From a bacterium (lineage in GTDB: Bacteria; 4484-113; JAFGCY01), in the NCBI GenBank assembly GCA_020440605.1, contig JAGRNT010000005.1:128404-192403 (forward strand): a DNA stretch of 64,000 nucleotides. Reading direction: 5' to 3'. Made by a program: the position numbers and the translations under genes. Positions within the stretch are counted from its first letter, which is position 1. Every line of letters starts with the position of its first letter. Positions 4,916 through 36,080 of the stretch are shown piece after piece. The notes under the pieces were generated by a model. It did no database searches and was not told the origin of the DNA. It saw only the letters and a program-made list of their open reading frames with translations.

Positions 4916-5039
4916 ACAGTTGAAGAGTACTGAAGCGTGAAGAGTAAAGCGTGATCAGGCAGCCCGCCGTTCACGGTGCTTCCATGGGAAGGTTGCAGGG
5001 AGCATGTTGCGGTTGCAGAAGAACCTGCATCATTGAACA

Positions 5040-5080
5040 GATGCAATTACGGGACTGTCCCTGCTGCATATAATTAAGCA
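5040..5080 (+). promoter_or_regulatory. candidate sigma70-type promoter for the lipoprotein gene
   Basis: Perfect TATAAT at 5069-5074 with a weak -35 (TTACGG). AGGGGAG RBS and ATG 5099 follow downstream. Confidence 0.35.
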
Positions 5081-5098
5081 GGGGAGAAGCTTGAAGGA

Positions 5099-6436
5099 AT
5101 GCAGACTTCGACCATAAAACCGGTTCGATTGATCTTGCTGCTACTGGGCCTGCTGCTGGCGGGCTGCGCTGGCTCTCAGTCCATTTCAGCAACTGATGTT
5201 GCCAGCGAGCCGGCCGTGGACGAGATGCCTGGGCTGAGCATGCCAGAACTGCCCCTGCCAAGCGAGATCCGGGTGCCCGCTGAAGTTTCCAGTGAATATC
5301 TTAAGCGAGGAGTAGACTACGAAACAGATCTCTACCATGAAGATGTTGAGATTCAAAATGATGCTCTACGATTTCGCACGACTGAAGAAATTATTGACGT
5401 TGCGATTACCTTGTACTGGTTGAAAGTGCCTGATTATGAATGCGAAAAAACGATCAGAACAGAATGGAGTAATAGTTACAAGACAAAATACATAGGTATT
5501 GCCAATTTTTCCGATAACAGATGGGAATGGGCAAGAATCCATGAAGGTCAGTATTCTGAAGATAACGTCAAGCAAGGCGCGATTCTCGTAGCTTTGGCTG
5601 TGAATGGCGATGCAGCCTTAAGATGGCTCATAGCTGGCGATCTTGCTCCTCCAGTAGTCAAGCGGGTCAGCCCAGCACTTCTAAGCGCGGGAGTTCAGTC
5701 TGAGTTCTATGCAAAGTTCGTGAATGATATTCCGGATCAGTATCTTTGGACTTTCGGCGGTGGTCTGTCCATCGACTCTTCCACTGAGGAAGTTCCAGAC
5801 GTTTATGTGGAGGGTCTAGGAAACTACACCGGTACGCTGACAGTTTCCAACCCGTCTGGAAGCAGTGACTTCGAATTCAGCTATGAGATACTAGATCAAA
5901 TGGAGTATGAACCGCTGCATTTGATTGCACTACCTCAGGGCAACCTATTCCATGTGGGAGAAGAAATTCCTATAACCGTATATACCGGAGAAATTCCGGA
6001 AGTGATGCCAATGGATTACGCTATTGTTGGCATGAGCTACCCGGATGCATTGCATTATGTGTTTGGCAGCTATGGAATTGGTGAGATTTCTGAAGATCGG
6101 TGGGAAGCAGATGGATTCTGGAGCAACCAGCCTGATCCAGACATCTGGTTCCTTGAACTTCCTGATGAGTACATCATTGAAGAATCAATCGATGGTACGC
6201 AATTGACATTTTTGTCACTTGTGCTAGCACCGGTTTCTTCTGTAGTGCATTACGGGGAAGGAGGTATCTGCAATCTCAAACTGAAAGCAACTATGCCAGG
6301 TGAATTCAAGCTGTCATTCCAAGAGTTGCGTCCAAACCAATCAACACTTGCAACATACTATAACCAAAATGGCACAACAGGTTTCTGGCATGACATCTCA
6401 AACGAGGGCCAGCCGAGCATCACGGTGCTTCCCTGA
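5099..6436 (+). CDS. lipoprotein, hypothetical; shares an N-terminal domain with the large PPC lipoproteins
   Basis: Signal peptide with lipobox MQTSTIKPVRLILLLLGLLLAGC. From about 5280 the body is visibly AT-rich compared with its flanks. Motif IANFSDNRWEWARI resembles ADYSSGRWDWIG of the 50-64 kb paralogs. Confidence 0.7.
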   Translation: MQTSTIKPVRLILLLLGLLLAGCAGSQSISATDVASEPAVDEMPGLSMPELPLPSEIRVPAEVSSEYLKRGVDYETDLYHEDVEIQNDALRFRTTEEIIDVAITLYWLKVPDYECEKTIRTEWSNSYKTKYIGIANFSDNRWEWARIHEGQYSEDNVKQGAILVALAVNGDAALRWLIAGDLAPPVVKRVSPALLSAGVQSEFYAKFVNDIPDQYLWTFGGGLSIDSSTEEVPDVYVEGLGNYTGTLTVSNPSGSSDFEFSYEILDQMEYEPLHLIALPQGNLFHVGEEIPITVYTGEIPEVMPMDYAIVGMSYPDALHYVFGSYGIGEISEDRWEADGFWSNQPDPDIWFLELPDEYIIEESIDGTQLTFLSLVLAPVSSVVHYGEGGICNLKLKATMPGEFKLSFQELRPNQSTLATYYNQNGTTGFWHDISNEGQPSITVLP

Positions 6437-6437
6437 A

Positions 6438-6505
6438 TCCGGTTTCCGGGATCCGGCTTCCGGGATCGGGAGAATGAATCCCGAAACCCGATACCGGAAA
6501 CCAGC
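6438..6505. terminator. inverted-repeat structure between convergent genes (possible bidirectional terminator)
   Basis: ccggtttccgggatccggcttccgggatcggg … cccgaaacccgataccggaaacc form an extended imperfect hairpin. No clear U-tract. Confidence 0.3.
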
Positions 6506-7426: not shown

Positions 7427-7552
7427 TTTCCGAGGTTGTAGGATCTGGGTTGTGGGGAGTAGGGCTGGTGTCATGCTGCGCATGACCGGCAGCCCCTGGC
7501 GATGCCTGCGGCATCGCATCTGCTACAACCTACAACCTAGATCCCAGCTCCT
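7427..7552. repeat. MITE-like inverted-repeat element (family A: GGTTGTAGG…CCTACAACCTAG arms around internal palindromes)
   Basis: Left arm gaggttgtaggatctgggttgtgggg; central palindromes catgctgcgcatg and gatgcctgcggcatc; right arm ctacaacctacaacctagatcccagctcc. The right arm contains the stop codon and last codons of GNAT-1. Confidence 0.5.
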
Positions 7553-8648: not shown

Positions 8649-9212
8649 TCAGCTCCTCCTGACCCTGTGGCGGTAGTCCATTGCCTCCCACTCACTGCGC
8701 GAGATCTGGAAATAGATCACGCTGACCCAGCCACCCTGCCGGTAATGGCAACAGGGGCGGATTCCCAGGCAGCGCATCCCGCACAGCTCCAGCCCGCGGC
8801 GGGCCCGCTCATGCGTCCAGACCGTGTCAGCCATCACGGTCTGCAGCGGGTGGTTCTCGAACAGCATGCTGATCAGCAGCTGCTTGGCCTCCATCCCGAA
8901 TCCGCGCCGCTGATGCTCGGGACGGATAAAGGTCCCGATCCAGGCCGTCAGGCGCGGCAGCGTCAGCGGCCCGACTTCCTCGTAGCCCACCGCCTCGCCG
9001 CTATCCAGGCGCTCGATGCAGTACATGCGCCGGCCGTTCTCCGAGATCATGCCGTTGTCAGCGAAGTCCCGCCGCACGGCGGGCACGGTTTCATGGTAGG
9101 GACCCCAGTGGGCATTCGGTGTGCGGTTCTCCTCACTGAAGATCCGCAGCACCTCATCCTCACTGTGGAAGGGCCGCAGCCGTACGAGCTGCCCCTCATA
9201 GATCTGATGCAT
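8649..9212 (-). CDS. GNAT family N-acetyltransferase, paralog 3
   Basis: The track start is TTG at 9218; the first ATG is at 9210-9212 (MHQIYEGQLVRLRPF…). Motif HQRRGFGMEAKQLL. C-terminus …WEAMDYRHRVRRS. Confidence 0.75.
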   Translation of the reverse strand: MHQIYEGQLVRLRPFHSEDEVLRIFSEENRTPNAHWGPYHETVPAVRRDFADNGMISENGRRMYCIERLDSGEAVGYEEVGPLTLPRLTAWIGTFIRPEHQRRGFGMEAKQLLISMLFENHPLQTVMADTVWTHERARRGLELCGMRCLGIRPCCHYRQGGWVSVIYFQISRSEWEAMDYRHRVRRS

Positions 9213-9214
9213 GT

Positions 9215-9769
9215 TCAACTCCTGGCAACCACGTGCCGGTAATCCATTGACAGCCAGTCGCGCCGGCTGATTGCATAGAAAAGCTTGGCGACGTGCCGGC
9301 CGCAGCTGAAGTGCGCCGCGGGCTTGAGCCCGATGTAGCGCATCCCGCAGCGCTCCAGGCCGCGGATCGCCGCCGTATGGCCCTCAAGGGTCACGGCGTA
9401 GAGCGTGTCCAGCGGCAGGTTCTCGAACAGGAAGCAGGCCGCGAGCCGCTTGGCCTCCGAGCCGAAGCCGCGCCGGCGCCAGGCCCCGAACAGATGCGTG
9501 CCCGTCCAGTAGCTGAGCAGGTCACTGTGCAGGTTCAGGTAGCCCGCCATGCTGTTGCCGGCAAGTTCCTCGATGGCCCAGGTCAGGCCCTGCTCCAGAT
9601 CCAGCCCGCCATTGGCTGCGAAACGCTGCACCTGCATCGCCGAGGCCCCATGCCAGGGACCCCAGAGCCCAGGCGGGTCCTCAAGGCTGCTGGCCGTGAT
9701 CCTGGCCCATTCAGCTTCGCTGGCAACAGGCCGGATCCGCACCTGCTCGCCTGTGTAAGTGGTGTACAT
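9215..9769 (-). CDS. GNAT family N-acetyltransferase, paralog 4
   Basis: Starts MMYTTYTGEQVRIRPV (two consecutive ATGs, 9772 and 9769). Motif WRRRGFGSEAKRLA. C-terminus …LSMDYRHVVARS. Confidence 0.75.
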   Translation of the reverse strand: MYTTYTGEQVRIRPVASEAEWARITASSLEDPPGLWGPWHGASAMQVQRFAANGGLDLEQGLTWAIEELAGNSMAGYLNLHSDLLSYWTGTHLFGAWRRRGFGSEAKRLAACFLFENLPLDTLYAVTLEGHTAAIRGLERCGMRYIGLKPAAHFSCGRHVAKLFYAISRRDWLSMDYRHVVARS

Positions 9770-9772
9770 CAT

Positions 9773-10327
9773 TCAACTCCTGACAACCGCATGGCGGTAG
9801 TCCATCTGCTCCCATTCACTGCGCATGAGCTGGAAGTAATGTGTGTCAACGTAGCGGCCGCGCACGAAGTGCGAGAGCCGGGTACTGCCGGCAGGGCGGA
9901 AGCCCACGGCCTCCAGCCCGGCGCGGCTGCGCGCATGCACTGCAGTTGTGTCGGCCCAGAGTGACTCAAGCGGGAAGTTCTCGAACAGGAAGCACATGGC
10001 CAGCAGCTTGGCCTCGCGGCCGAAGCCCCGGCTCATCTGCGCCGGGATGATCCCCGTGGCCGGGAAGGCCGTGAGCTGCCAGCGGCCGATGCCGCAGTAT
10101 TCCAGCCCGACGAACTCTCCGTTGTCAGTGCGCTCAATCGCAAAGGCGAAGCTGTCCATGGATGTGGCCAGGCGCTGCCACTCGGATGCACTGCGCGCCG
10201 CCACATCCCACTGGATGCCGAGGTGCTCATTGGGCGAGACCGCGTAGCTGCGCACATAGGCGGCGAACTCCGCCTCGCTGGCGAAGGGCCTGATCCGAAC
10301 TTGTTGTCCTGCGTATGTTGTATACAT
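9773..10327 (-). CDS. GNAT family N-acetyltransferase, paralog 5
   Basis: ATG at 10325-10327 (MYTTYAGQQVRIRPF…). Motif MSRGFGREAKLLA. C-terminus …WEQMDYRHAVVRS. The track ORF is over-extended upstream. Confidence 0.75.
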   Translation of the reverse strand: MYTTYAGQQVRIRPFASEAEFAAYVRSYAVSPNEHLGIQWDVAARSASEWQRLATSMDSFAFAIERTDNGEFVGLEYCGIGRWQLTAFPATGIIPAQMSRGFGREAKLLAMCFLFENFPLESLWADTTAVHARSRAGLEAVGFRPAGSTRLSHFVRGRYVDTHYFQLMRSEWEQMDYRHAVVRS

Positions 10328-10441
10328 ATCTTCAGGTTGTAGGAGCTGGGTTGTAGGACATAGGGGATGTGTCGAGCTTCGCTCGACCTGATCAACCATG
10401 GTGACGCGGAGCGTCACACCAGCCCTACACCCGACAACCTA
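10328..10441. repeat. MITE-like inverted-repeat element, family A copy
   Basis: aggttgtaggagctgggttgtaggacatagg – gtgtcgagcttcgctcgac – ggtgacgcggagcgtcac – ccctacacccgacaacctagctcctatgtcct. It abuts the ATG of paralog 5 and contains the stop codon of paralog 6. Confidence 0.55.
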
Positions 10442-11002
10442 GCTCCTATGTCCTCTCCTTACGATTTCCCTGATCGGCAAGCGTTCCCAGTCCTCACGCA
10501 TGATCCGGTAGTAGATCCGTGCCGTATGGCCGCCCTGGCTGTACTGAGCAACTCGCTGACAGCCGCAGCGCTGCATCCCGATTGCTTCCAGTCCGCGGGC
10601 GGAGCGCCTGTGGTTTCCCAGTGTGACCGCCCAGACGGAGTGCAGCGGGAAATTCTCGAACATGTGGCACAGGGCCAGCAGCTTGGCTTCACGGCCGTAA
10701 CCGCGGCTGCGCTGCTCACTGAGGATTTCCGTGCCGATGCTGCCCGCCAGCTGGTCGCGTTGCGGCCGGGCGTTCACCCAGCCCACATGTTTACCCTTGC
10801 CGACCTGCTCGACTGCGAAACAGGTCTCCAGCCCGCTGGCAAGATTGAGGCGGTAACGCTCGACTGCGTCGTCAATCCGCCAGCGACAGTCACCGAACTG
10901 CGCATTGAGCATGGAGAACTGCACCGTGCAGAATTCGCGCAGTTCCGTCTCGTCCCTGAAGGGCCGGATCCGCACCAGCTGTCCCGTGTATGTCGTGTAC
11001 AT
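10439..11002 (-). CDS. GNAT family N-acetyltransferase, paralog 6 (subfamily ending WERLPIREIVRRGHRS)
   Basis: ATG at 11000-11002 (MYTTYTGQLVRIRPF…). Motif QRSRGYGREAKLLA. The last codons …GHRS* are encoded inside the repeat arm. Confidence 0.75.
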   Translation of the reverse strand: MYTTYTGQLVRIRPFRDETELREFCTVQFSMLNAQFGDCRWRIDDAVERYRLNLASGLETCFAVEQVGKGKHVGWVNARPQRDQLAGSIGTEILSEQRSRGYGREAKLLALCHMFENFPLHSVWAVTLGNHRRSARGLEAIGMQRCGCQRVAQYSQGGHTARIYYRIMREDWERLPIREIVRRGHRS

Positions 11003-25593: not shown

Positions 25594-27276
25594 ATGCCGC
25601 GACTGACCCACTGCCTGCTGTGCCTCACGCTTCTGGCCACGCTAGCGCTGCCCTGTGGCACGAGCGCTGCCCCTGACTCCTCCGGGCCGGCCTTCCCGCG
25701 CCTCGTGATGTGGTATCCCACGCACCCGAAGACCCGCATGGAGGACCGTGCGCGCTTCGACCTGTTCGTGGGTGACTTCGCCACCGGCGTTCCCGGTGAA
25801 CGGCCCAGCGGCAGGAACAAGGGCAGGACCCTGGCCTCCGAGCTGCGCCGTGCCAACGGCAGCACGCAGCTGCTGACCTACTACCGGCCGCTGGTGATCC
25901 GCCCCAGCTCACTCTACGAGGGGACGCGCAAGCACAATCCGCTGCTGGGCAGCTGGCCCGTGAACTGGTTCATGACCGAGGCCGGCAGCAGCCTCGCGGC
26001 CCCGCTCACTGCAGGCGACACGCAGCTGAAGGTGGTGGACTGGGAGCAGTCGGGCGAGGCCCAGGGCAGCCGCCCGCGCAGCTGGGTGATCTGGAAGGCC
26101 AGCCAGGATATCCAGGTCGACAATGAGATCATGACGATCAGCGCCGTGGATGAAGCCACGCGCACGCTCACCGTACAGCGCGGCATGAACGGCACGCAGG
26201 CTGCGGCGCATGCGGCCGGGACGCGCACTGCCCCGCTGGCCCGCTTCTGGCGCGGCAGCTACATCATGAACCTCACCGACACCAGCGGCACTGCCAGTCT
26301 GGACGGGGCCGGAAGCGCCGAGGACTACGCCGGCTACGCCTTCCGCATGGGCCTTGAGGGTGCCAACGAGTGGTTCGGCTACATCGGAGGCGACCAGGAC
26401 GGCTTCCTCTGGGACATGCTGCCTGACAACCTGAGCTGGCTGATGTGGACCGACACCCGCAGCCTGGATCTCGACCGTGACAACGTCCCCGACAGCTTCG
26501 CGAGTCTCGACAGCGCCTGGGAGCGTGCGCTCGCCCGGCAGAATGCCATGTTCGCCGAGCGCTTCCCCGGCAAGGCGATCGTGCGCAACCAGAGCCGCAG
26601 CCGCGACTTCGACAGCTACAACGGCGAAAGCTTCGTCTCCTTCCCGCACGACCAGTGGAACGGCGGCGACCCGGATGACACCGCGGGCTGGACGCGCTTC
26701 TGGCATGACGTGTTCCTCGGCGGCCCGGAGGAGGCGCGCGGCGGGATCGCGCAGTTCCAGCAGGGCAATGTCACGCCGAACTTCACGCAGATCATCACCG
26801 ACGACCTGGAGATGGACCTCGACAGTGCGGGCTTCCCGGAGCTGAAGAACCCGGAGACGGCCTCGCGCTTCAGGCCGAACTACCGCAAGATGCGCTGGGG
26901 TCTGTGCTCGGCGCTGCTTTCCGGCAGCTACTACGGCTACGTGATCACCACGGACGGCTACGGCCTGCGCGGGATCGAGTGGTTCGATGAATATGACGAC
27001 GCCGGCAGCGGCCGCGGCTACCTCGGCTTCCCGCAGGGCGAGATGCAGCAGCTGAGCAGAAGCGCTGACAACGCTGATCACGGTGTCTGGGGCCGCGAGT
27101 ATGACAACGGTTACGTGCTTGTCAACCCGCTTGAGCGCGCGGTGGAGGTGCAGCTGCCGGCCGGGAAATGGCAACGCATAAAGGGCACGCAGGTCCCGGA
27201 GGTCAACAGCGGCGCAGTCGAGGAGGGCAGTGTGACGGTGCCGGCCTTTGACGGACTGATTTTGAAGAGGATCTAG
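25594..27276 (+). CDS. secreted protein, possible glycoside-hydrolase-like TIM-barrel (polysaccharide processing)
   Basis: Signal peptide MPRLTHCLLCLTLLATLALPCGTSAAP. 560 aa, Trp/Asp-rich. The context with MBOAT/SGNH/TPR-porin suggests a PelA-like role. No catalytic motif confirmed. Confidence 0.5.
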   Translation: MPRLTHCLLCLTLLATLALPCGTSAAPDSSGPAFPRLVMWYPTHPKTRMEDRARFDLFVGDFATGVPGERPSGRNKGRTLASELRRANGSTQLLTYYRPLVIRPSSLYEGTRKHNPLLGSWPVNWFMTEAGSSLAAPLTAGDTQLKVVDWEQSGEAQGSRPRSWVIWKASQDIQVDNEIMTISAVDEATRTLTVQRGMNGTQAAAHAAGTRTAPLARFWRGSYIMNLTDTSGTASLDGAGSAEDYAGYAFRMGLEGANEWFGYIGGDQDGFLWDMLPDNLSWLMWTDTRSLDLDRDNVPDSFASLDSAWERALARQNAMFAERFPGKAIVRNQSRSRDFDSYNGESFVSFPHDQWNGGDPDDTAGWTRFWHDVFLGGPEEARGGIAQFQQGNVTPNFTQIITDDLEMDLDSAGFPELKNPETASRFRPNYRKMRWGLCSALLSGSYYGYVITTDGYGLRGIEWFDEYDDAGSGRGYLGFPQGEMQQLSRSADNADHGVWGREYDNGYVLVNPLERAVEVQLPAGKWQRIKGTQVPEVNSGAVEEGSVTVPAFDGLILKRI

Positions 27277-27800
27277 GTTCTAGGTGCTCGGTACTAGGTT
27301 CTAGGGCTGGCGTATCAATGGTCCGTGAAGTAAGCTGCTGGAAACCACAAAAGGAATATCTCCATGGATATCCAGTCTCATCGCGACCTGATTGTCTGGC
27401 AACGTTCCATGCAGCTTGTCAGGCAGGTTTATGAACTCACTCGCCGATTTCCACGGGAGGAGCTTTACGGACTCACTTCGCAACTGAGGCGAGCAACCGT
27501 GTCCATTCCGGCGAATATCTCCGAAGGGCATGGCCGGGGCACGCGCAGGGATTACGCCCACTTCGTGACTATGGCAATGGGAAGCGCTTGTGAGGTGGAA
27601 ACTCTGCTCGAAACGAGTGTGATCGTCGGCATTGTTTCCTATGACGAGATTCGCATTTGTGCGGGTCTTCTTGACGAAACGGGAAGAATGCTAAGGGTGC
27701 TCCGCAGGAGACTGCTGAGTCGGGAATAGCTGAAATGGCCGGAGTTGGCAGGGATTCCCCTAGCACCTAGCACCTCACACCTAGAACCTAGTTCGACTTA
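27258..27800. mobile_element. MITE-like element with CTAGG-rich terminal inverted repeats carrying a four-helix-bundle gene
   Basis: Left TIR ctaggttctaggtgctcggtactaggttctaggg. Right TIR cctagcacctagcacctcacacctagaacctag is its near reverse complement. Confidence 0.45.
27364..27729 (+). CDS. four-helix-bundle protein (23S rRNA intervening-sequence protein family, TIGR02436)
   Basis: IVWQRSMQLVRQVYELTRRFPREELYGLTSQLRRATVSIPANISEGHGR is the family hallmark. AAGGA RBS. Confidence 0.8.
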   Translation: MDIQSHRDLIVWQRSMQLVRQVYELTRRFPREELYGLTSQLRRATVSIPANISEGHGRGTRRDYAHFVTMAMGSACEVETLLETSVIVGIVSYDEIRICAGLLDETGRMLRVLRRRLLSRE

Positions 27801-28510
27801 CTGGGTAAATACGGAATCAGCCGCTGGGCCAGTTCACGGATCACCTGGTGCTGCAGCCAGACCTTGCCCGGGCCGGTCAGCGTTGCCAATGCCAGGCCCT
27901 CACCCGAAAGGAAGATGTTCTTGAGCTTCTTCTGGATCTCGAAGTTGTAGGTCACCGTGTCCTCGAAGGCCGCGATATGCCCCGTGTCCACCTTGATGGT
28001 CTGGCCGGCCTCCAGCTCCATCGCGGACAGCTCACCGTCGATCTCCAGGAAGACCGTGCCCGGACCGCTCATGCGCTGCAGGATGAAGCCCTCCCCGCCG
28101 AGGAAGCCCTTGCCGAGCCCCGTCGGCTCCAGCTTGACCGTGCAGCTGTCCTGGCTGCAGAGGAAACTGCCGCGCTGCGCGAGCAGGCTGCGTCCCGGCT
28201 GGATGTCATAGGGCACGATATGCCCGGGGAAGCTCGAGGCGAAGGCCACGCGGCCGCTGGAGCCCTCGGCCTGGAAGTAGTTCATGAAGATGCTTTCGCC
28301 GGCCACCGCACGCCCGAGCGCGCCGCCGATCATCCCCATCAGCCCGCCGCCGCTTTCCGGCATCGAGGTGTCGAGGTCGATGTTGGGGTCCATCCAGATC
28401 ATCCCGCCGGTCTCGCTCATCACGCGCTGCCCCGGCTGCAGCTGCAGCTCCACGATCTGGTGGATCGTCCCGCGGATCTCATAGTTCAGTCCCGTCGCGC
28501 TGATTGCCAT
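27788..28510 (-). CDS. TIGR00266/AIM24 family protein
   Basis: ATG at 28508-28510 (MAISATGLNYEIRG…). Repeated beta-rich segments (…GEGFILQRMSGPGTVFLEIDGEL…TLTGPGKVWLQ) are typical of DUF124/AIM24. Confidence 0.7.
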   Translation of the reverse strand: MAISATGLNYEIRGTIHQIVELQLQPGQRVMSETGGMIWMDPNIDLDTSMPESGGGLMGMIGGALGRAVAGESIFMNYFQAEGSSGRVAFASSFPGHIVPYDIQPGRSLLAQRGSFLCSQDSCTVKLEPTGLGKGFLGGEGFILQRMSGPGTVFLEIDGELSAMELEAGQTIKVDTGHIAAFEDTVTYNFEIQKKLKNIFLSGEGLALATLTGPGKVWLQHQVIRELAQRLIPYLPSKSN

Positions 28511-28591
28511 TGCCAGTCTCCCTCTGCGGCTGCTGCCGTGCTGGGCTGATTCTAGCAGGCAAATGTGCACGCGCGCCTATAATCAGGGGAC

Positions 28592-30472
28592 ATGCCAGCG
28601 GGACAGCGACAGCGGGTGGAAAGCGGTGCACTGTGCTTCGAGTACGGTCCGCTGCCGCAGCTCGGGGAGCTGCAGGACCACGCCGCACTTGTGGATCAGC
28701 TGCGCGCGCCGCTGCGCATCCTGCAACAGGGCGAAACCCTGCATGAATCCGGCCCGGATTTCCCGCTGCTGGAGTTCGCGCTGGACTTCGCGAGCTGGTG
28801 CTGCCCGCATGCCTTCTGGCTGTTCGAGCAGCATCCGCGCCTGCGCGATGAAATGGAACACCTGCCCGGCGGGCTCGGCAGTGCGGACTTCGCCGCAGTG
28901 GACAGCGTGGGGGAGCTGCTGCTTGGCATCCAGGCCGAGGGGCCGCTGCTGCTGCTGCCGGATCCGCAGGCTGACAACGGACTGCGCAGTACTGCACTGC
29001 GCACTGAACCCGCCCAGCTCAGGGAGCTCGGGCAGCGCCTGCTCTCCACACTGGCGGCTGATCTGGCAACGCAGTCCGGCTGGGACATCACGCCGCTCGT
29101 GCGCCGCCGCTGGCGCATGGCACTCCTTGACAAACCGCGGCGCGGCCCGGCACCGGCGCTGGATGTGGCAACACGCCTGGCCTGGGAGAAGCGCCTGCTG
29201 CATGTGGATCAGGCCGGCTGGCAACTGAGCTTCAGCCTGGCGGAGCCGGCGCGCGACGTGGCCTCGCTTGAGGAACTGCCCGGCGTCGTCAGTGGCAGCC
29301 TGAGTCTGCGCGGCCCCTCCGGCAAGCTGCTGCAGCTGGAGGACTTCCCGCTGCTGGAATTCGCCCTGACGGCGCTCGACTGGCTCAGCGATGCCGGGCA
29401 TGCCAGCCTGCGCCTCAGGCGTGGCAGCACTGAACCGCAGTGGGGCGGCTATGAACTGGGCAGCGCTGCCAATGGCAGCCTGCTCGTGGCCCTGCGCCGC
29501 CGCAGCGGCGGGGTGGAGATCCTCGGCCCCGGCCAGCGCGCACGCGGCAGCCTGCTGCCGGAGCAGCAGCTCGGCCGGTTGCTGCTGGAATTCGCCGCCG
29601 AACTGCTGCGCGAGCTGCATGCGCGCACGGGCTGGTCAGCCCTGCCGCTGTTTGGCAAGGCCCACGGCCATGTGATCGAGGCGCATCCGGCGGTGCTGCC
29701 GAACTTCGAACTGCTGCCGCTCATGCTGGAGCGGCCCGGCAGCCGCAGCCTGGCCGGCCGCGAGAAGTCCCTGCCCCTGCCGGCCACAGCGCTGACTGAT
29801 CTGGCCCCGGAGGTGCTGCTGGAGGGACCGGCCCCCGGCCTGGAGCTGCCGGAACCGCCCACGGCCAGTGCGCTCAGCCTGGAGCTGCGCCTGCTGGATC
29901 TGCCCCAGCGCCCGCAGACCCCCGCCGACCTGCAGGAGGCCCTGCGCTGCAGCGTGCAGCTCCGGCGCGGCAGCCGTCTGGCAATCGCCGACGAGGAGGG
30001 CCTGCCGCTGCTGGACTTCTGCCTGAACTGCCTCGTCTGGCTCTGCCGCCACGAAAGCGTCAGCCCGGCAGCCAGCCGTGAGCGTGACCCGCGCCGCCGC
30101 GGCCGGCCCGTGGACTTCATCCTCGCCTATCCGCAGCAGGGGGGCCTGCAGCTCGGCCTGCGCGAGGACCCGCATGGCTACCTGCTGCTGCTGGAACGGC
30201 CGGGGCGGCCCGTTGCCAGCCTGCTGCTCAGCCACAGTGAGGCCTGGATGCTGATGTTCGACATCGCCGCCGCACTGGTGCAGGGCGTGCATGCGCGCTG
30301 GGGCTGGGACATCCGCCCGCTGTTCGGCGCACGCAGCTACCACTTCAGCGAACGACCGCTGCAGCTCGTGCCGAGCATCGGCTATATGAACCTTGAGCGC
30401 GACGTGCGCGAACTGAGCGACTGGCGCCATGGGATCACCCGCGGCCCGGCGGGTTGCCTGCCGAGTTTCTAG
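28592..30472 (+). CDS. hypothetical protein with three internal repeats of about 190 aa
   Basis: 626 aa, Leu/Arg-rich. Repeated blocks DFPLLEFALDFASWCC…TQSGWDITPL, DFPLLEFALTALDWLSDAG…RTGWSALPLFG and GLPLLDFCLNCLVWLCRHE…RWGWDIRPLFG. TATAAT 8 nt upstream of the ATG. Confidence 0.6.
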   Translation: MPAGQRQRVESGALCFEYGPLPQLGELQDHAALVDQLRAPLRILQQGETLHESGPDFPLLEFALDFASWCCPHAFWLFEQHPRLRDEMEHLPGGLGSADFAAVDSVGELLLGIQAEGPLLLLPDPQADNGLRSTALRTEPAQLRELGQRLLSTLAADLATQSGWDITPLVRRRWRMALLDKPRRGPAPALDVATRLAWEKRLLHVDQAGWQLSFSLAEPARDVASLEELPGVVSGSLSLRGPSGKLLQLEDFPLLEFALTALDWLSDAGHASLRLRRGSTEPQWGGYELGSAANGSLLVALRRRSGGVEILGPGQRARGSLLPEQQLGRLLLEFAAELLRELHARTGWSALPLFGKAHGHVIEAHPAVLPNFELLPLMLERPGSRSLAGREKSLPLPATALTDLAPEVLLEGPAPGLELPEPPTASALSLELRLLDLPQRPQTPADLQEALRCSVQLRRGSRLAIADEEGLPLLDFCLNCLVWLCRHESVSPAASRERDPRRRGRPVDFILAYPQQGGLQLGLREDPHGYLLLLERPGRPVASLLLSHSEAWMLMFDIAAALVQGVHARWGWDIRPLFGARSYHFSERPLQLVPSIGYMNLERDVRELSDWRHGITRGPAGCLPSF

Positions 30473-30574
30473 TATGTGAGTTAAATGTCGAATGGAAACA
30501 AAACCTTCACAATTGTAATCAACTTGATTTCTAGAATGTAGATATGGTTCGATCGAGAAATTGCTATAGGAGGT

Positions 30575-31183
30575 CTATTCGAACAATACCTTTGACGTTA
30601 CTCTGTTTCCATTCTTTGCAAAACTATTTCCCAAGTTACGTGATTGCATTAGTGATTCAATGTTTACTACAGCACCAAAAGTGATGAATACATTATGAAA
30701 TCGATTAAAGTTCTGTCCCCAATAGATCATCGCACAGGACATTGGAGCACCTTTCCCCGTGTCTTTGCCGCATTCCAAAAATTTCAGTCTTGTGTCATAT
30801 AGGAAGCATATTCCGTTAGCTGCGCCCCACACGCTATTCTTCCAATGTGAAGTATTGGTTGCCACCGGTACTAAAGCCAATACTTCTGAGCCAAATTGTA
30901 TATGAGCCATATAACATTTTTCTAACCAGGAACTAATACGCGTTCCTCTTTGATGATCTTTGCCATAAGGTGGATTTACATAAATCGTTCTATAATTCCA
31001 AGTGTTTGCTAAGCCATCATTATCTGGTAGCATCCACTCAGTTTCTGCATTAACAATAGAATATTCACTTGAGCAAGGATCTAGTAATATTTGTCCACCG
31101 AAGAAATCTCGAACTGCATTAACATACTTTGCGGGTGTTCCCCAGTCTTGGCGTTTAGTGTAGATTGTGCGACCAGCGGTCAT
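30575..31183 (-). CDS. DNA N6-adenine methyltransferase, phage Dam-like (PF05869-type)
   Basis: ILLDPCSSEYS and YVNPPYGK (the DPPY-class motif IV). The first ATG at 31181-31183 overlaps the upstream gene's stop (ATGA). The gene is AT-rich compared with the rest of the window. Confidence 0.7.
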   Translation of the reverse strand: MTAGRTIYTKRQDWGTPAKYVNAVRDFFGGQILLDPCSSEYSIVNAETEWMLPDNDGLANTWNYRTIYVNPPYGKDHQRGTRISSWLEKCYMAHIQFGSEVLALVPVATNTSHWKNSVWGAANGICFLYDTRLKFLECGKDTGKGAPMSCAMIYWGQNFNRFHNVFITFGAVVNIESLMQSRNLGNSFAKNGNRVTSKVLFE

Positions 31184-32322
31184 TGCAGTATGTTTCTCCA
31201 ATCCTTTTGTGCTAGAGCTTTCAGATCTGCTCGAAGTTTGTCTAAATCCTGATCTCTCGGCGCGATGACATTATACCATGAATATATATGCGCAATATTC
31301 TCGTCAAAATACCTCATCAATTGCAAGTGCGCGTCCAAACCGATCTTAACTTTTGTGAACTGATTGTTTCCACTTTTTCCAGAATAACTGCTGCGAAAAA
31401 TATCTCTAATTATCGAATAATCTCCAGATGGATTTATAAGGAGATTGTGTATGAATTCTCCAATGCCTTCGTCTGTTAGGAAAAGCAACCAGTCGTAACT
31501 TTGCGCCAGAACTCTCATTTCTTTATTCATGTTTTCTGCAGTGAACCAATTTCCATGATTGCTTACGATGCCTATTGTCAACGTGAAATTTTCCAATGTG
31601 AATGGATCATTACTTTGAATAATAGTATCTAGAAAATTTGAATAATTATCAACAACTAGTTGTCCACTATTGTTTGCCTGAATACCGACGACGGTACCAT
31701 CTGGCATGCGGAAGCGCTGAAGTGATGATACGGTGCGAGCGACATACGCTCCCTGTTTTGCTTTTTCTATAGTTTGTGGACCCTTTTTCATTCCTTCTTC
31801 CACACCAACGCGCTTGCATTCAACGATTGCATAGGGCGATGAGTAGATTTTTACAATAGAGAGATTCGCTTTCATCTCCTTAAAATCAGAGAGAAACGCT
31901 TGATAGTATGTGTTTCCAGATTCTGCAATGACACAACTGTTTCTATAAACAAAGTCCTTGGACAATAATTGATTGTTCTTCTTGTCTGTCTCAATTTTTC
32001 TCCTAAGCTCATTTGGAACAGACTTGAGTATTCTGGCGGTTGACAGGGGTCGATCAATAAGCGAAACAGGGATAACTTCACTATCAATGATAGGATGTAA
32101 AGAGAATTCAACATTGTGTGCTATTTCGCTGTTTGAATATTCAGAAATTGTATTTTCTATAGAAATACTGTCTCGCAGTCCCCATGTAACAAGCGTGTAA
32201 TATGTCATCAATTCTACAAAAGTCCCTAACGCTCTACCCGCTGCCTTTTTCCTGTCTTTGGCATAACTAAAAACTGTTTCAGCAAGTTCATTCTGTAGCT
32301 TGTCCACTGAATCAGGTGTCAA
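31180..32322 (-). CDS. putative Type II restriction endonuclease (partner of the methyltransferase)
   Basis: 380 aa, AT-rich. TTG start with a GGGAGA SD. Candidate PD-(D/E)xK core …SPYAIVECKRVG…. Stop overlaps the MTase start. Confidence 0.4.
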   Translation of the reverse strand: MTPDSVDKLQNELAETVFSYAKDRKKAAGRALGTFVELMTYYTLVTWGLRDSISIENTISEYSNSEIAHNVEFSLHPIIDSEVIPVSLIDRPLSTARILKSVPNELRRKIETDKKNNQLLSKDFVYRNSCVIAESGNTYYQAFLSDFKEMKANLSIVKIYSSPYAIVECKRVGVEEGMKKGPQTIEKAKQGAYVARTVSSLQRFRMPDGTVVGIQANNSGQLVVDNYSNFLDTIIQSNDPFTLENFTLTIGIVSNHGNWFTAENMNKEMRVLAQSYDWLLFLTDEGIGEFIHNLLINPSGDYSIIRDIFRSSYSGKSGNNQFTKVKIGLDAHLQLMRYFDENIAHIYSWYNVIAPRDQDLDKLRADLKALAQKDWRNILQ

Positions 32323-32339
32323 GATTGTTCTCCCAGTTT

Positions 32340-32395
32340 AGTCTATTAGCTGCATAGCCCTTCGCTACACCCTAGCTCCCAGCTCCTACGTCCTT
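32340..32395. repeat. solo MITE-family-A terminal repeat
   Basis: gctacaccctagctcccagctcctacgtcc sits at the junction of the AT-rich island and high-GC DNA. Confidence 0.35.
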
Positions 32396-33607
32396 CTTTA
32401 TCACGCCATGCTTCTCGCCGCAGCGGATGAAGGCCTCCACGCAGTGGTCGATCTGCTCCGTGGTGTGGCTCGCTGACAACTGCACACGGATGCGGGCCTT
32501 GCCCATCGGCACCACCGGATGGCTGAAGCCGATCACGTAGATCCCCTCGTCCAGCATCGAGCGCGCCATGTCGGCAGCGAGGCGGGCATCGCCGAACATC
32601 ACTGGCACGATCGGGCTCTCGCCCTGCACCAGCGTGAAGCCCGCTGCCTCCATGCGCCTGCGGAAATGCGCAGCGTTGGCTTCCAGGGTGTCGCGCAGCG
32701 CGGTGCCTTCCGTCAGCATCTCCATCACTTCCAGCGCGCCGTAGATCACCGCAGGCGGCACGGCATTGCTGAACAGGTAGGGGCGGCCGCGGTTGCGCAG
32801 CAGGCTGACAATCTCCGGCGGGCCGGCCACCAGGCCTCCCGAGGCCCCGCCGAGCGCCTTGCCGAGCGTGGTGGTGATCACATCCACCCTGTCCATCACA
32901 TTGTGGTGCTCATGCGTGCCGCGCCCCGTCCGGCCGATGAAGCCCGTGGCATGGCTGTCGTCAACCACCAGCAGCGCGCCGTACTGCTCGCAGAGTTCGG
33001 CGATGCGGTCCAGCGGCGCGATCATCCCGTCCATGCTGAACACGCCGTCGGTGACGACGCAGATGCTGCGCGCCTTGTCCTTCCACATCTGCAGCTTCTT
33101 CTCGAGGTGCGCCGTGTCGCTGTTCTTGTAGGTGTCGCGCTGGGCCTCGCAGAGCCGGATGCCGTCAATCAGCGAGGCGTGGATCAGGCGGTCGGAGATG
33201 ATCACGTCCTCCCTGCCGAAGAACACCTCGAAGAAGGCCGCGTTGGCATCGAAGCAGCTCGCAAACAGGATCGCCTCCGGCATCCCGAGGAACTCCGCCA
33301 GGCGCTGCTCCAGCTCGTTGTGGCTGTCCTGCGTGCCGCAGATGAAGCGCACGCTGGACATGCCGTAGCCGCGCTCATCGAGCCCGCGCCGGGCCGCCTC
33401 CACCACCCGTGGATGGCTGGCCAGCCCGAGGTAGTTGTTGGCGCAGAAGTTGAGCACGCGGCGCGGGGCGCTGCCCAGCGGGTACTCGACCTCGATCTCC
33501 ACGCCCTGGGCACTGCGGATGTAGCGCTCGTCCTTGCTCAGGCCGGCGGCGCTGAGTTCCTCCAGGGTCTGCGTGAGCCGCGTGCGCAGCTCGTTCGTAT
33601 ATGCCAT
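32372..33607 (-). CDS. alpha-oxoamine synthase, PLP-dependent (glycine C-acetyltransferase Kbl / serine palmitoyltransferase-like)
   Basis: Class II aminotransferase fold. VRFICGTQDSHNELE and the PLP-lysine region TLGKALGGASGGLVAG are present. 411 aa. Confidence 0.8.
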   Translation of the reverse strand: MAYTNELRTRLTQTLEELSAAGLSKDERYIRSAQGVEIEVEYPLGSAPRRVLNFCANNYLGLASHPRVVEAARRGLDERGYGMSSVRFICGTQDSHNELEQRLAEFLGMPEAILFASCFDANAAFFEVFFGREDVIISDRLIHASLIDGIRLCEAQRDTYKNSDTAHLEKKLQMWKDKARSICVVTDGVFSMDGMIAPLDRIAELCEQYGALLVVDDSHATGFIGRTGRGTHEHHNVMDRVDVITTTLGKALGGASGGLVAGPPEIVSLLRNRGRPYLFSNAVPPAVIYGALEVMEMLTEGTALRDTLEANAAHFRRRMEAAGFTLVQGESPIVPVMFGDARLAADMARSMLDEGIYVIGFSHPVVPMGKARIRVQLSASHTTEQIDHCVEAFIRCGEKHGVIKKDVGAGS

Positions 33608-35827: not shown

Positions 35828-36080
35828 AAGAGGGGTGTAGGAGCTGGGGTGTAGGGTGTAGCAGAAGGGGTCTAGTGGGCAGGAGGTGCGACTTTAGTCG
35901 CACAATATTCCTTGTCTGCTAACTGCCGGCCTGGTACGGAATTCGGAGTTCATTGTGCGACAGCAAGTGTCGCACCTCCTGAAGTTTCGCTGCACCCTGC
36001 AACCAGTACCCAGTAACCAGAGCCAGGCTTGCAGCCTGGCCTCCGCTACACCCTAGCTCCAAGCTCCTATATCCTCGGCG
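35825..36080. repeat. MITE-like element, family A arms around a palindromic core
   Basis: Left arm ggggtgtaggagctggggtgtagggtgtagc and right arm gctacaccctagctccaagctcctatatcc. Core contains ggaggtgcgactttagtcgcac … gtgcgacagcaagtgtcgcacctcc. Confidence 0.4.

Follow-up and report, generated by a model that had tools for sequence, protein, structure and literature searches.

What the short AT-rich island in this stretch of DNA encodes, and how it came to lie there, was the question raised by the locus. The stretch analyzed (hereafter the window) comprises 64,000 nucleotides (nt) of contig JAGRNT010000005.1 (assembly GCA_020440605.1), and the island takes up ~1.9 kb of it (window positions 30464..32362, no strand). 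It carries two minus-strand genes that share an ATGA (31180..31183): a gene for a protein of 380 amino acids (aa) with a TTG start (31180..32322), here termed R, and a gene for a 202-aa protein (30575..31183), here termed M. An earlier note, drawn from the nucleotide sequence alone, had proposed a restriction-modification (R-M) module, and the strict linkage of R to M together with the remote homology of the R product to a PADLOC restriction endonuclease model supports that proposal. We judged it probable, at roughly 80%, that the island is a Type II R-M cassette gained by horizontal transfer, with R upstream of M and translationally coupled to it.

Composition and acquisition of the island

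Base composition set the island sharply apart from its surroundings. GC content was 0.35-0.42 in all 300-nt segments from 30500 to 32300 and 0.65-0.74 in both flanks; for the segment 30480-32370 as a whole it was 0.391, versus a mean of 0.630 (standard deviation 0.025, minimum 0.505) for the remaining 1.9-kb segments of the window, placing the island ~9.5 standard deviations below that mean and far beyond the variance of the window. At third codon positions, GC was 0.36 for R and 0.33 for M versus 0.85-0.91 for four neighbouring genes. The AT-rich segment between high-GC genes to which the earlier note had drawn attention was thus borne out.

The island lies between the 3' ends of a 626-aa hypothetical gene on its left (28592-30472, plus strand) and, on its right, a kbl-like gene (32372-33607, minus strand) for a 411-aa protein of the alpha-oxoamine synthase family (PF00155) that is named glycine C-acetyltransferase. 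Its limits were placed from the drop in GC, the break in synteny and the spacer between the same two genes in a related genome (locus L249). In L249, whose kbl-like protein is 87% identical to that of the window, the synthase and 626-aa genes are convergent and separated by just 117 nt, an empty site that contains a two-armed, CTAG-rich palindromic element; because the flanking genes lie so close together there, the island is an insertion. The closest relative, a Planctomycetales metagenome-assembled genome (locus L246, CP060262.1; synthase 90% identical), holds another insert at the same junction (9194-10886, ~1.7 kb, GC 0.39-0.54), with an unannotated 263-aa open reading frame (ORF) that has no Pfam match and with ~140-nt direct repeats at ~9320-9460 and ~10520-10660. 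Given this different insert and the empty spacer in L249, the junction between the kbl-like gene and the 626-aa gene is an insertion hotspot that is differently occupied in three related genomes. Nucleotide synteny between the window and its relatives was lost at ~30460 and between 32392 and 32415. Atypical in composition and missing at the orthologous site in L249, the island is a horizontally acquired genomic island, as had been proposed, and so extreme a contrast in GC speaks for a recent arrival. No integrase gene was found in the island and no transfer RNA (tRNA) gene in the window.

The methyltransferase gene

M (ATG at 31183-31181) encodes a predicted DNA N6-adenine methyltransferase, assigned to PF05869 (phage T1/HP1 Dam-type) from Pfam, PHROG and alignment. 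Against the PF05869 Dam model, which has a gathering score of 28.1, the product scored 53.3 bits, with profile positions 6-163 of 169 covered. Further matches were to phrog_111 (E = 1.5e-23), a 'DNA methyltransferase' entry, and to a PADLOC 'orphan methyltransferase' model. Its score against the NCBIfam equivalog TIGR01712 (phage_N6A_met) was 36.6 bits, below the cut-off of 97.05, so that phage-Dam function and GATC specificity are not to be transferred to M. The two motifs picked out in the earlier note, DPCS (residues 35-38; 31070..31081, minus strand) and the catalytic motif NPPY (residues 70-73; 30965..30976, minus strand), were present at these positions. When 30-81 relatives were aligned, D35, P36 and C37, the whole of NPPY and ~60 further positions were invariant, and the window copy deviated at just one of 79 highly conserved columns. 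Homologues ~30% identical to M occurred in 129 phage records, and the Protein Data Bank (PDB) held no sequence relative. Together, the Pfam and PHROG matches place this NPPY protein in a phage Dam-type family of DNA N6-adenine methyltransferases, in agreement with the initial assignment.

The 380-aa protein

R is a putative Type II restriction endonuclease gene, so assigned from its ORF, its linkage to M and its remote homology. Its TTG start (32322-32320) is preceded, 6 nt upstream, by a GGGAGA Shine-Dalgarno sequence (32329..32334, minus strand), and its TGA stop (31182-31180) lies within the ATGA that also contains the start of M, an overlap that suggests translational coupling of the two genes. 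Both start codons are supported by the fact that homologues of the two proteins begin at the same residues as the window copies. The overlapping minus-strand gene pair, the TTG start with its Shine-Dalgarno sequence and the motif AIVECK (residues 165-170; 31813..31830, minus strand) had all been described before and were found as described. AIVECK is a candidate (D/E)xK catalytic strand, judging from alignment and from a predicted beta strand at residues 165-172 in which it lies; E168, C169, K170 and R171 were invariant across the alignment of the protein's homologues, here called family 1. A second conserved region, the N-terminal core (residues 29-75; 32098..32238, minus strand), comprises a GRALGTxVE helix with E37, an IE with E56 and HNVEF with H69 and E72, and these residues are invariant in both endonuclease families considered below.

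Family 1 is large and without annotation: at least 3,488 homologues, equal in length and ~50% identical, are all named 'hypothetical'. An exhaustive profile search gave 421 clusters at 50% identity. A scan of GTDB species representatives placed family-1 loci in 552 species, with hosts among the Planctomycetota, Verrucomicrobiota, Bacteroidota, Chloroflexota, Cyanobacteriota, Latescibacterota, Patescibacteria, proteobacteria and two archaea. The 380-aa protein itself matched nothing in Pfam, NCBIfam or PHROG, a Pfam scan of 32 family-1 members gave nothing consistent, and tblastn searches of 50,697 phage records and 72,556 plasmids were negative. The sole family-level signal was a PADLOC model of a Type II restriction enzyme, with no non-nuclease family matched in its place, which is compatible with the nuclease suggested in the earlier note. 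Within the family the window copy is unexceptional; it deviated at 8 of 142 highly conserved columns (family range 0-12) and kept all family-invariant residues, including E37, E56, H69, E72, E168 and K170.

Linkage of R to M

Cellular loci with a family-1 R were examined at 85 sites, of which the GTDB part was the best 80 of the 552. The R gene was followed by an M gene within 0-42 nt in every one of the 85, and in nearly all of them the GC content of the cassette was below that of its flanks. Viral contigs in IMG/VR carried a family-1 R in only four cases, and M was present in all four. One locus (L002) that appeared from the recorded gene calls to be without a methyltransferase was rejected as an exception, since its DNA encodes an intact M.

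From the side of M the association was looser. A search with the alignment of the M family gave 80 metagenome loci, 58-68% identical to the window M, in which a family-1 R lay upstream in 61, a gene of a second family (family 2) was present in 11, and neither was found in 5. Among IMG/VR viral loci at >=50% identity, M stood alone in 23 of 27. In addition, several loci had an interrupted R adjoining an intact M: L055 (2933-4051) through an in-frame stop, and L097, L101, L110, L119, L137 and L146 through splitting or truncation. These seven look like decaying cassettes. The asymmetry, in which R is never without M, M is often without R and R decays first, is the toxin/antidote pattern expected of a restriction gene and a methyltransferase that protects against it. 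The earlier note had allowed for two versions of its proposal, an R-M pair or a solitary methyltransferase plus a nuclease; these are separable only by linkage data, which favour a cognate pair.

The solitary viral copies of M deserve a separate remark. They were found at IMG/VR loci L166-L203 (e.g., L166:6001-6591, L170:6001-6591 and L173:6001-6570), on viral contigs among phage-like genes, and were 50-66% identical to the window M and up to 89% identical to copies borne on cassettes, which makes them candidates for a phage counter-defence against the cassette.

A second partner family and the pBspH1 protein

Family 2 consists of 370-398-aa genes that lie downstream of M and convergent with it (L111, L121, L161 and 8 further metagenome loci; e.g., L121:4585-5697, minus strand). 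Pfam and NCBIfam gave no match to these proteins, but the PADLOC model PDLC03437, labelled 'Type II restriction enzyme', aligned with them along its whole length (E = 1e-56 to 3e-69). The window R matched the same model at E = 3e-4, with residues 151-199 aligned to profile positions 204-250 of 381, and 22 of the 32 family-1 members scanned also matched it, the best at E = 1.5e-5. True members of PDLC03437 match positions 3-357 at E = 1e-56 to 1e-270, whereas the window R aligns only locally; it is a distant relative of the pBspH1-type family rather than a member of it.

The sole plasmid match of family 2 (39.6% identity) was a 381-aa 'hypothetical' ORF (WP_176538537.1) on pBspH1 of Acinetobacter sp. 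NEB 394, where it sits between a helix-turn-helix controller-type gene and a convergent gene for a 411-aa PF01555 methyltransferase, in a controller, restriction and modification (C-R-M) cluster. Because this ORF matched PDLC03437 over positions 1-381 of 381 at E = 1e-270, it is effectively the founder of that model. Acinetobacter sp. NEB 394, formerly Bacillus species H, is the producer of BspHI, which cuts at T^CATGA. BspHII is the BREX (bacteriophage exclusion) protein PglX (PMC12707154), and both BspHIII and BspHIV belong to Type III (PMC8259958); by elimination of these three, the Type II cluster on pBspH1 is most likely BspHI. In the literature we found no direct statement on the sequence or fold of R.BspHI or M.BspHI, and the main text of Orlowski and Bujnicki (2008) does not include BspHI.

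Alignment by hhalign of family 1 with family 2 and the pBspH1 protein gave three collinear blocks (E = 7e-6, 1.6e-5, and 2e-3 to 3e-5). Window residues 29-75 corresponded to GRKVGDAIEL...IE...HKVEF; residues 164-181, AIVECKRVGVEEG, to IIECKKVGVEQT (E = 1.6e-5), joining the AIVECK region to IIECKKVGVE of family 2; and residues 181-195, GPQTIEKAKQGAYVA, to GPQTPEKAKQASFVS (E = 7e-6). The motif blocks common to the two families are thus GRxxGxxxE / IE / HxVEF, ECK(R/K)VGVE and GPQTxEKAKQ, and G29, R30, G33, E37, E56, H69, E72, G181, P182, Q183, E186, K189 and Q190 are invariant in both. Two further pairs, SNHGNWF/SHWEEKS and YDWLLFLTD/NDYNLIIPD, were dropped as homologous blocks once the C-terminal halves (E = 0.41) and the insertions (E = 0.35) had proved dissimilar by hhalign.

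The M partners of the two families were interleaved, with a mean identity of 0.661 between groups versus 0.663 within the family-1 partners, and several M proteins paired with family 2 had as nearest neighbour one paired with family 1, at 79-84% identity. Methyltransferases this similar usually have the same specificity, and an identity of 80% has been used as a threshold for motif transfer (Nanomotif preprint). Because the partner M proteins are up to 84% identical, the two R families probably recognize the same site. Avoidance of palindromes, in carrier loci as well as on viral contigs, did not discriminate a site, all 6-bp palindromes being generally depleted; TCATGA was unremarkable in the carriers, with rank 18 of 64, and was little avoided on viral contigs, whether these had close methyltransferases or served as controls.

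Fold and catalytic core

Confident AlphaFold models were obtained, at a predicted local distance difference test score (pLDDT) of 88 and a predicted template modelling score (pTM) of 0.90 for family 1, and at a pLDDT of 88.7 and a pTM of 0.86 for family 2. The predicted secondary structure follows the order alpha-beta-beta-beta...beta(ExK)-alpha, which is the PD-(D/E)xK order. In the model of the core that we propose, a helix at residues 24-46 (with E37) would be followed by strands with E56 and H69/E72, by the strand at 165-172 (E168-x-K170) and by a helix at 183-198 (GPQTIEKAKQ). Between its HNVEF and ExK strands, this core would be split by an unusual insertion of ~90 aa; in family 1 the corresponding ~90-aa segment between HNVEF and ECK is poorly conserved. 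Family 2 has the usual PD-(D/E)xK spacing of ~22 residues between HKVEF and ECK, after which comes a ~125-aa beta-rich insertion. Motifs and element order are compatible with a PD-(D/E)xK-like core in the 380-aa protein, and it is from these that we infer one.

Among the matches in the PDB, those to mTOR (E = 0.04) and archaeal S3Ae (E = 0.006) were rejected as chance level. The similarity to archaeal ribosomal protein S3Ae/eS1, seen at C-terminal positions 284-375 of the joint profile of families 1 and 2 (window residues ~284-375), was marginal (E = 0.006-0.07).

Assessment of the proposed R-M cassette and its alternatives

As we picture the R-M cassette, the 202-aa Dam-family enzyme would methylate adenine N6 within a short specific site of the host chromosome, and the 380-aa protein would be the cognate Mg2+-dependent endonuclease, cutting the same site when it is unmethylated, as in incoming phage or plasmid DNA. 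The cassette, which lacks a mobility gene, was inserted into a spacer that bears a repeat and separates two convergent genes. The nuclease activity and fold of the 380-aa protein, the specificity it would have in common with M and the current activity of the cassette are things we infer.

Several observations weigh against this reading, most of them bearing on the nuclease. The assignment of the 380-aa protein as a nuclease draws on remote homology to a REBASE-derived endonuclease model; its direct PADLOC match is weak and local; and the similarity to the REBASE-derived family spans only ~110 residues, with no similarity found by hhalign between families 1 and 2 in their insertions (E = 0.35) or C-terminal halves (E = 0.41). 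The pBspH1 ORF is most likely R.BspHI, an identity reached by elimination. Foldseek searches with the models of both families returned no match at E <= 0.001 (PDB for both, BFVD for family 1), so that the nuclease fold which the earlier note had hoped structure prediction would disclose did not appear, and sequence and profile searches of the PDB recovered no solved restriction endonuclease, giving chance-level matches only. A scan for promoters and terminators showed no signal beyond the shuffled expectation and no evidence of an internal promoter for M. Finally, two of the deviations of the window R from its family, R57N and D332H, are non-conservative.

These two substitutions, which fall at highly conserved positions, also favour the best-surviving alternative, namely that the island is a decaying remnant in which M would still work, as a de facto orphan, and R, though an intact ORF, would have lost its catalytic activity. 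The interrupted and truncated R genes beside intact M genes in related loci point the same way, as does the orphan-type PADLOC label of M. However, the window R is full length, keeps its invariant residues and, with 8 deviations, falls within the family range of 0-12, and the island's extreme departure in GC points to an arrival too recent for much decay. We regard a remnant as unlikely.

Still less probable, in our estimate, is a 380-aa protein that is not a nuclease at all and instead serves as a DNA-recognition or regulatory partner required by a small methyltransferase with no separate target-recognition domain. The failure of the structure search to recover a nuclease fold, the mere 202 aa of M and the strictness of the linkage from the partner side would all suit such a role. 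Against it, the M lineage is found on its own in 23 viral loci and 5 metagenome loci and evidently does without a partner; a homologous core occurs in the pBspH1 protein, the founder of a REBASE-derived model, which has as partners a controller protein and a full-size N6_N4 methyltransferase that is unrelated to M; and an interrupted partner beside an intact M is what would be expected if the partner were dispensable or toxic. A fragment of a phage or mobile element, with M kept for anti-restriction self-protection and its neighbour as unrelated cargo, is very improbable, since for all that PF05869 is phage-typical, with ~30%-identical homologues in 129 phage records and close relatives on IMG/VR contigs, the island consists of two genes only, with no integrase, tRNA or other phage gene, R matched none of 50,697 phage records and occurs on just 4 IMG/VR contigs, and a two-gene cassette conserved across 552 cellular species is not random cargo.

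Comparison with characterized systems

The R-M cassette that we favour can be set beside three known systems. The first is the pBspH1 system. The R proteins are of nearly equal length (380 aa in the window versus 381 aa on pBspH1) and have collinear core motifs in common, both systems are of Type II with an adenine or amino-methyltransferase as partner, and the methyltransferase lineage beside the window R is also the partner of family 2, whose members are ~40% identical to the pBspH1 R. They differ in that the large beta-rich insertion precedes the ExK strand in the window family and follows it in the pBspH1 type; in gene order, R and M being co-directional, overlapping and without a controller protein in the window, whereas on pBspH1 the controller and R genes are convergent with M; and in the methyltransferase, a 202-aa PF05869 protein in the window and a 411-aa PF01555 protein on pBspH1.

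Classical co-directional Type IIP systems in which R precedes M and the nuclease is of the PD-(D/E)xK kind, e.g., EcoRI, offer a second comparison. The window cassette resembles them in its two genes, in the position of R before M, in a GC content below that of the host, in its spread across phyla and in an E...ExK pattern within a predicted alpha-beta-beta-beta-alpha context, but its R has no sequence or Foldseek similarity to solved restriction endonucleases and has a ~90-aa excursion between the putative core strands 2 and 3. With the phage T1/HP1-type Dam enzymes (PF05869; M.EcoT1Dam, GATC), M has in common its Pfam family, its small size and the order of DPx and NPPY. Where the phage enzymes are solitary, however, M adjoins a putative restriction gene; it is only ~30% identical to the phage members and scores under the TIGR01712 cut-off. 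A relative 35% identical to M.EcoT1Dam methylates GATC, with off-target activity (PMC4996451).

Border repeat and other low-GC patches

At the right border of the island lies a single arm of a dispersed 26-nt repeat (32363..32388, plus strand), recognized by sequence comparison within the window, in which the kbl-like gene has its last ~7 codons and its stop. Other copies occur at 36044-36069 (plus strand), 35837-35862 (minus strand) and 7530-7552. The pair spanning 35837 to 36069 forms an element of ~230 nt with inverted ends of the 26-nt repeat, CGCTACACCCTAGCTCCCAGCTCCTA, and with internal hairpins, and looks like a miniature inverted-repeat transposable element (MITE), while the arms at 7530-7552 and at the island border are solo. 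The earlier note had placed a solo MITE arm at 32340-32395; that there is only one arm at the border was correct, but the arm is shorter than was thought. At the left border of the island, a second repeat arm and a target-site duplication were looked for and not found.

Two other departures from the base composition of the window were seen. The interval 5000-6500 forms a second low-GC patch (0.45-0.48) that coincides with a 445-aa ORF (5099-6436, plus strand) with a lipoprotein-like N-terminus, which may be another acquired gene. A moderate dip in GC (0.53-0.56) occurs at 27200-27900, just past an AIM24-family gene (27788-28570, minus strand).

Significance

The value of the finding is mainly annotational, in that a defence system of an ordinary kind is carried by a large 'hypothetical' family which standard tools miss. 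Of modest structural and evolutionary interest are also the displaced insertion, the unmatched fold and the swapping of partners. Linking family 1 to a characterized lineage of restriction endonucleases would let pipelines for R-M and defence systems recognize these loci, and the two related, differently built enzymes would become candidates for determination of specificity and structure; as a first guess, the candidate site for both is of the TCATGA/CATG type.

More tentatively, and with rather less than even expectation, family 1 may represent a structurally unrecognized architecture of restriction endonuclease, in which a minimal BspHI-like core has its ExK strand set apart by the ~90-aa variable subdomain and continues into a C-terminal half without detectable relatives, and which has exchanged one M lineage with the pBspH1-type architecture. 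If this is true, the two architectures would be isoschizomers that have diverged beyond recognition outside the active site, and an unannotated R-M system would be present in at least 552 species, where defence-finding pipelines score it as an orphan methyltransferase. In the genome itself, the island records a recent gain by horizontal transfer.

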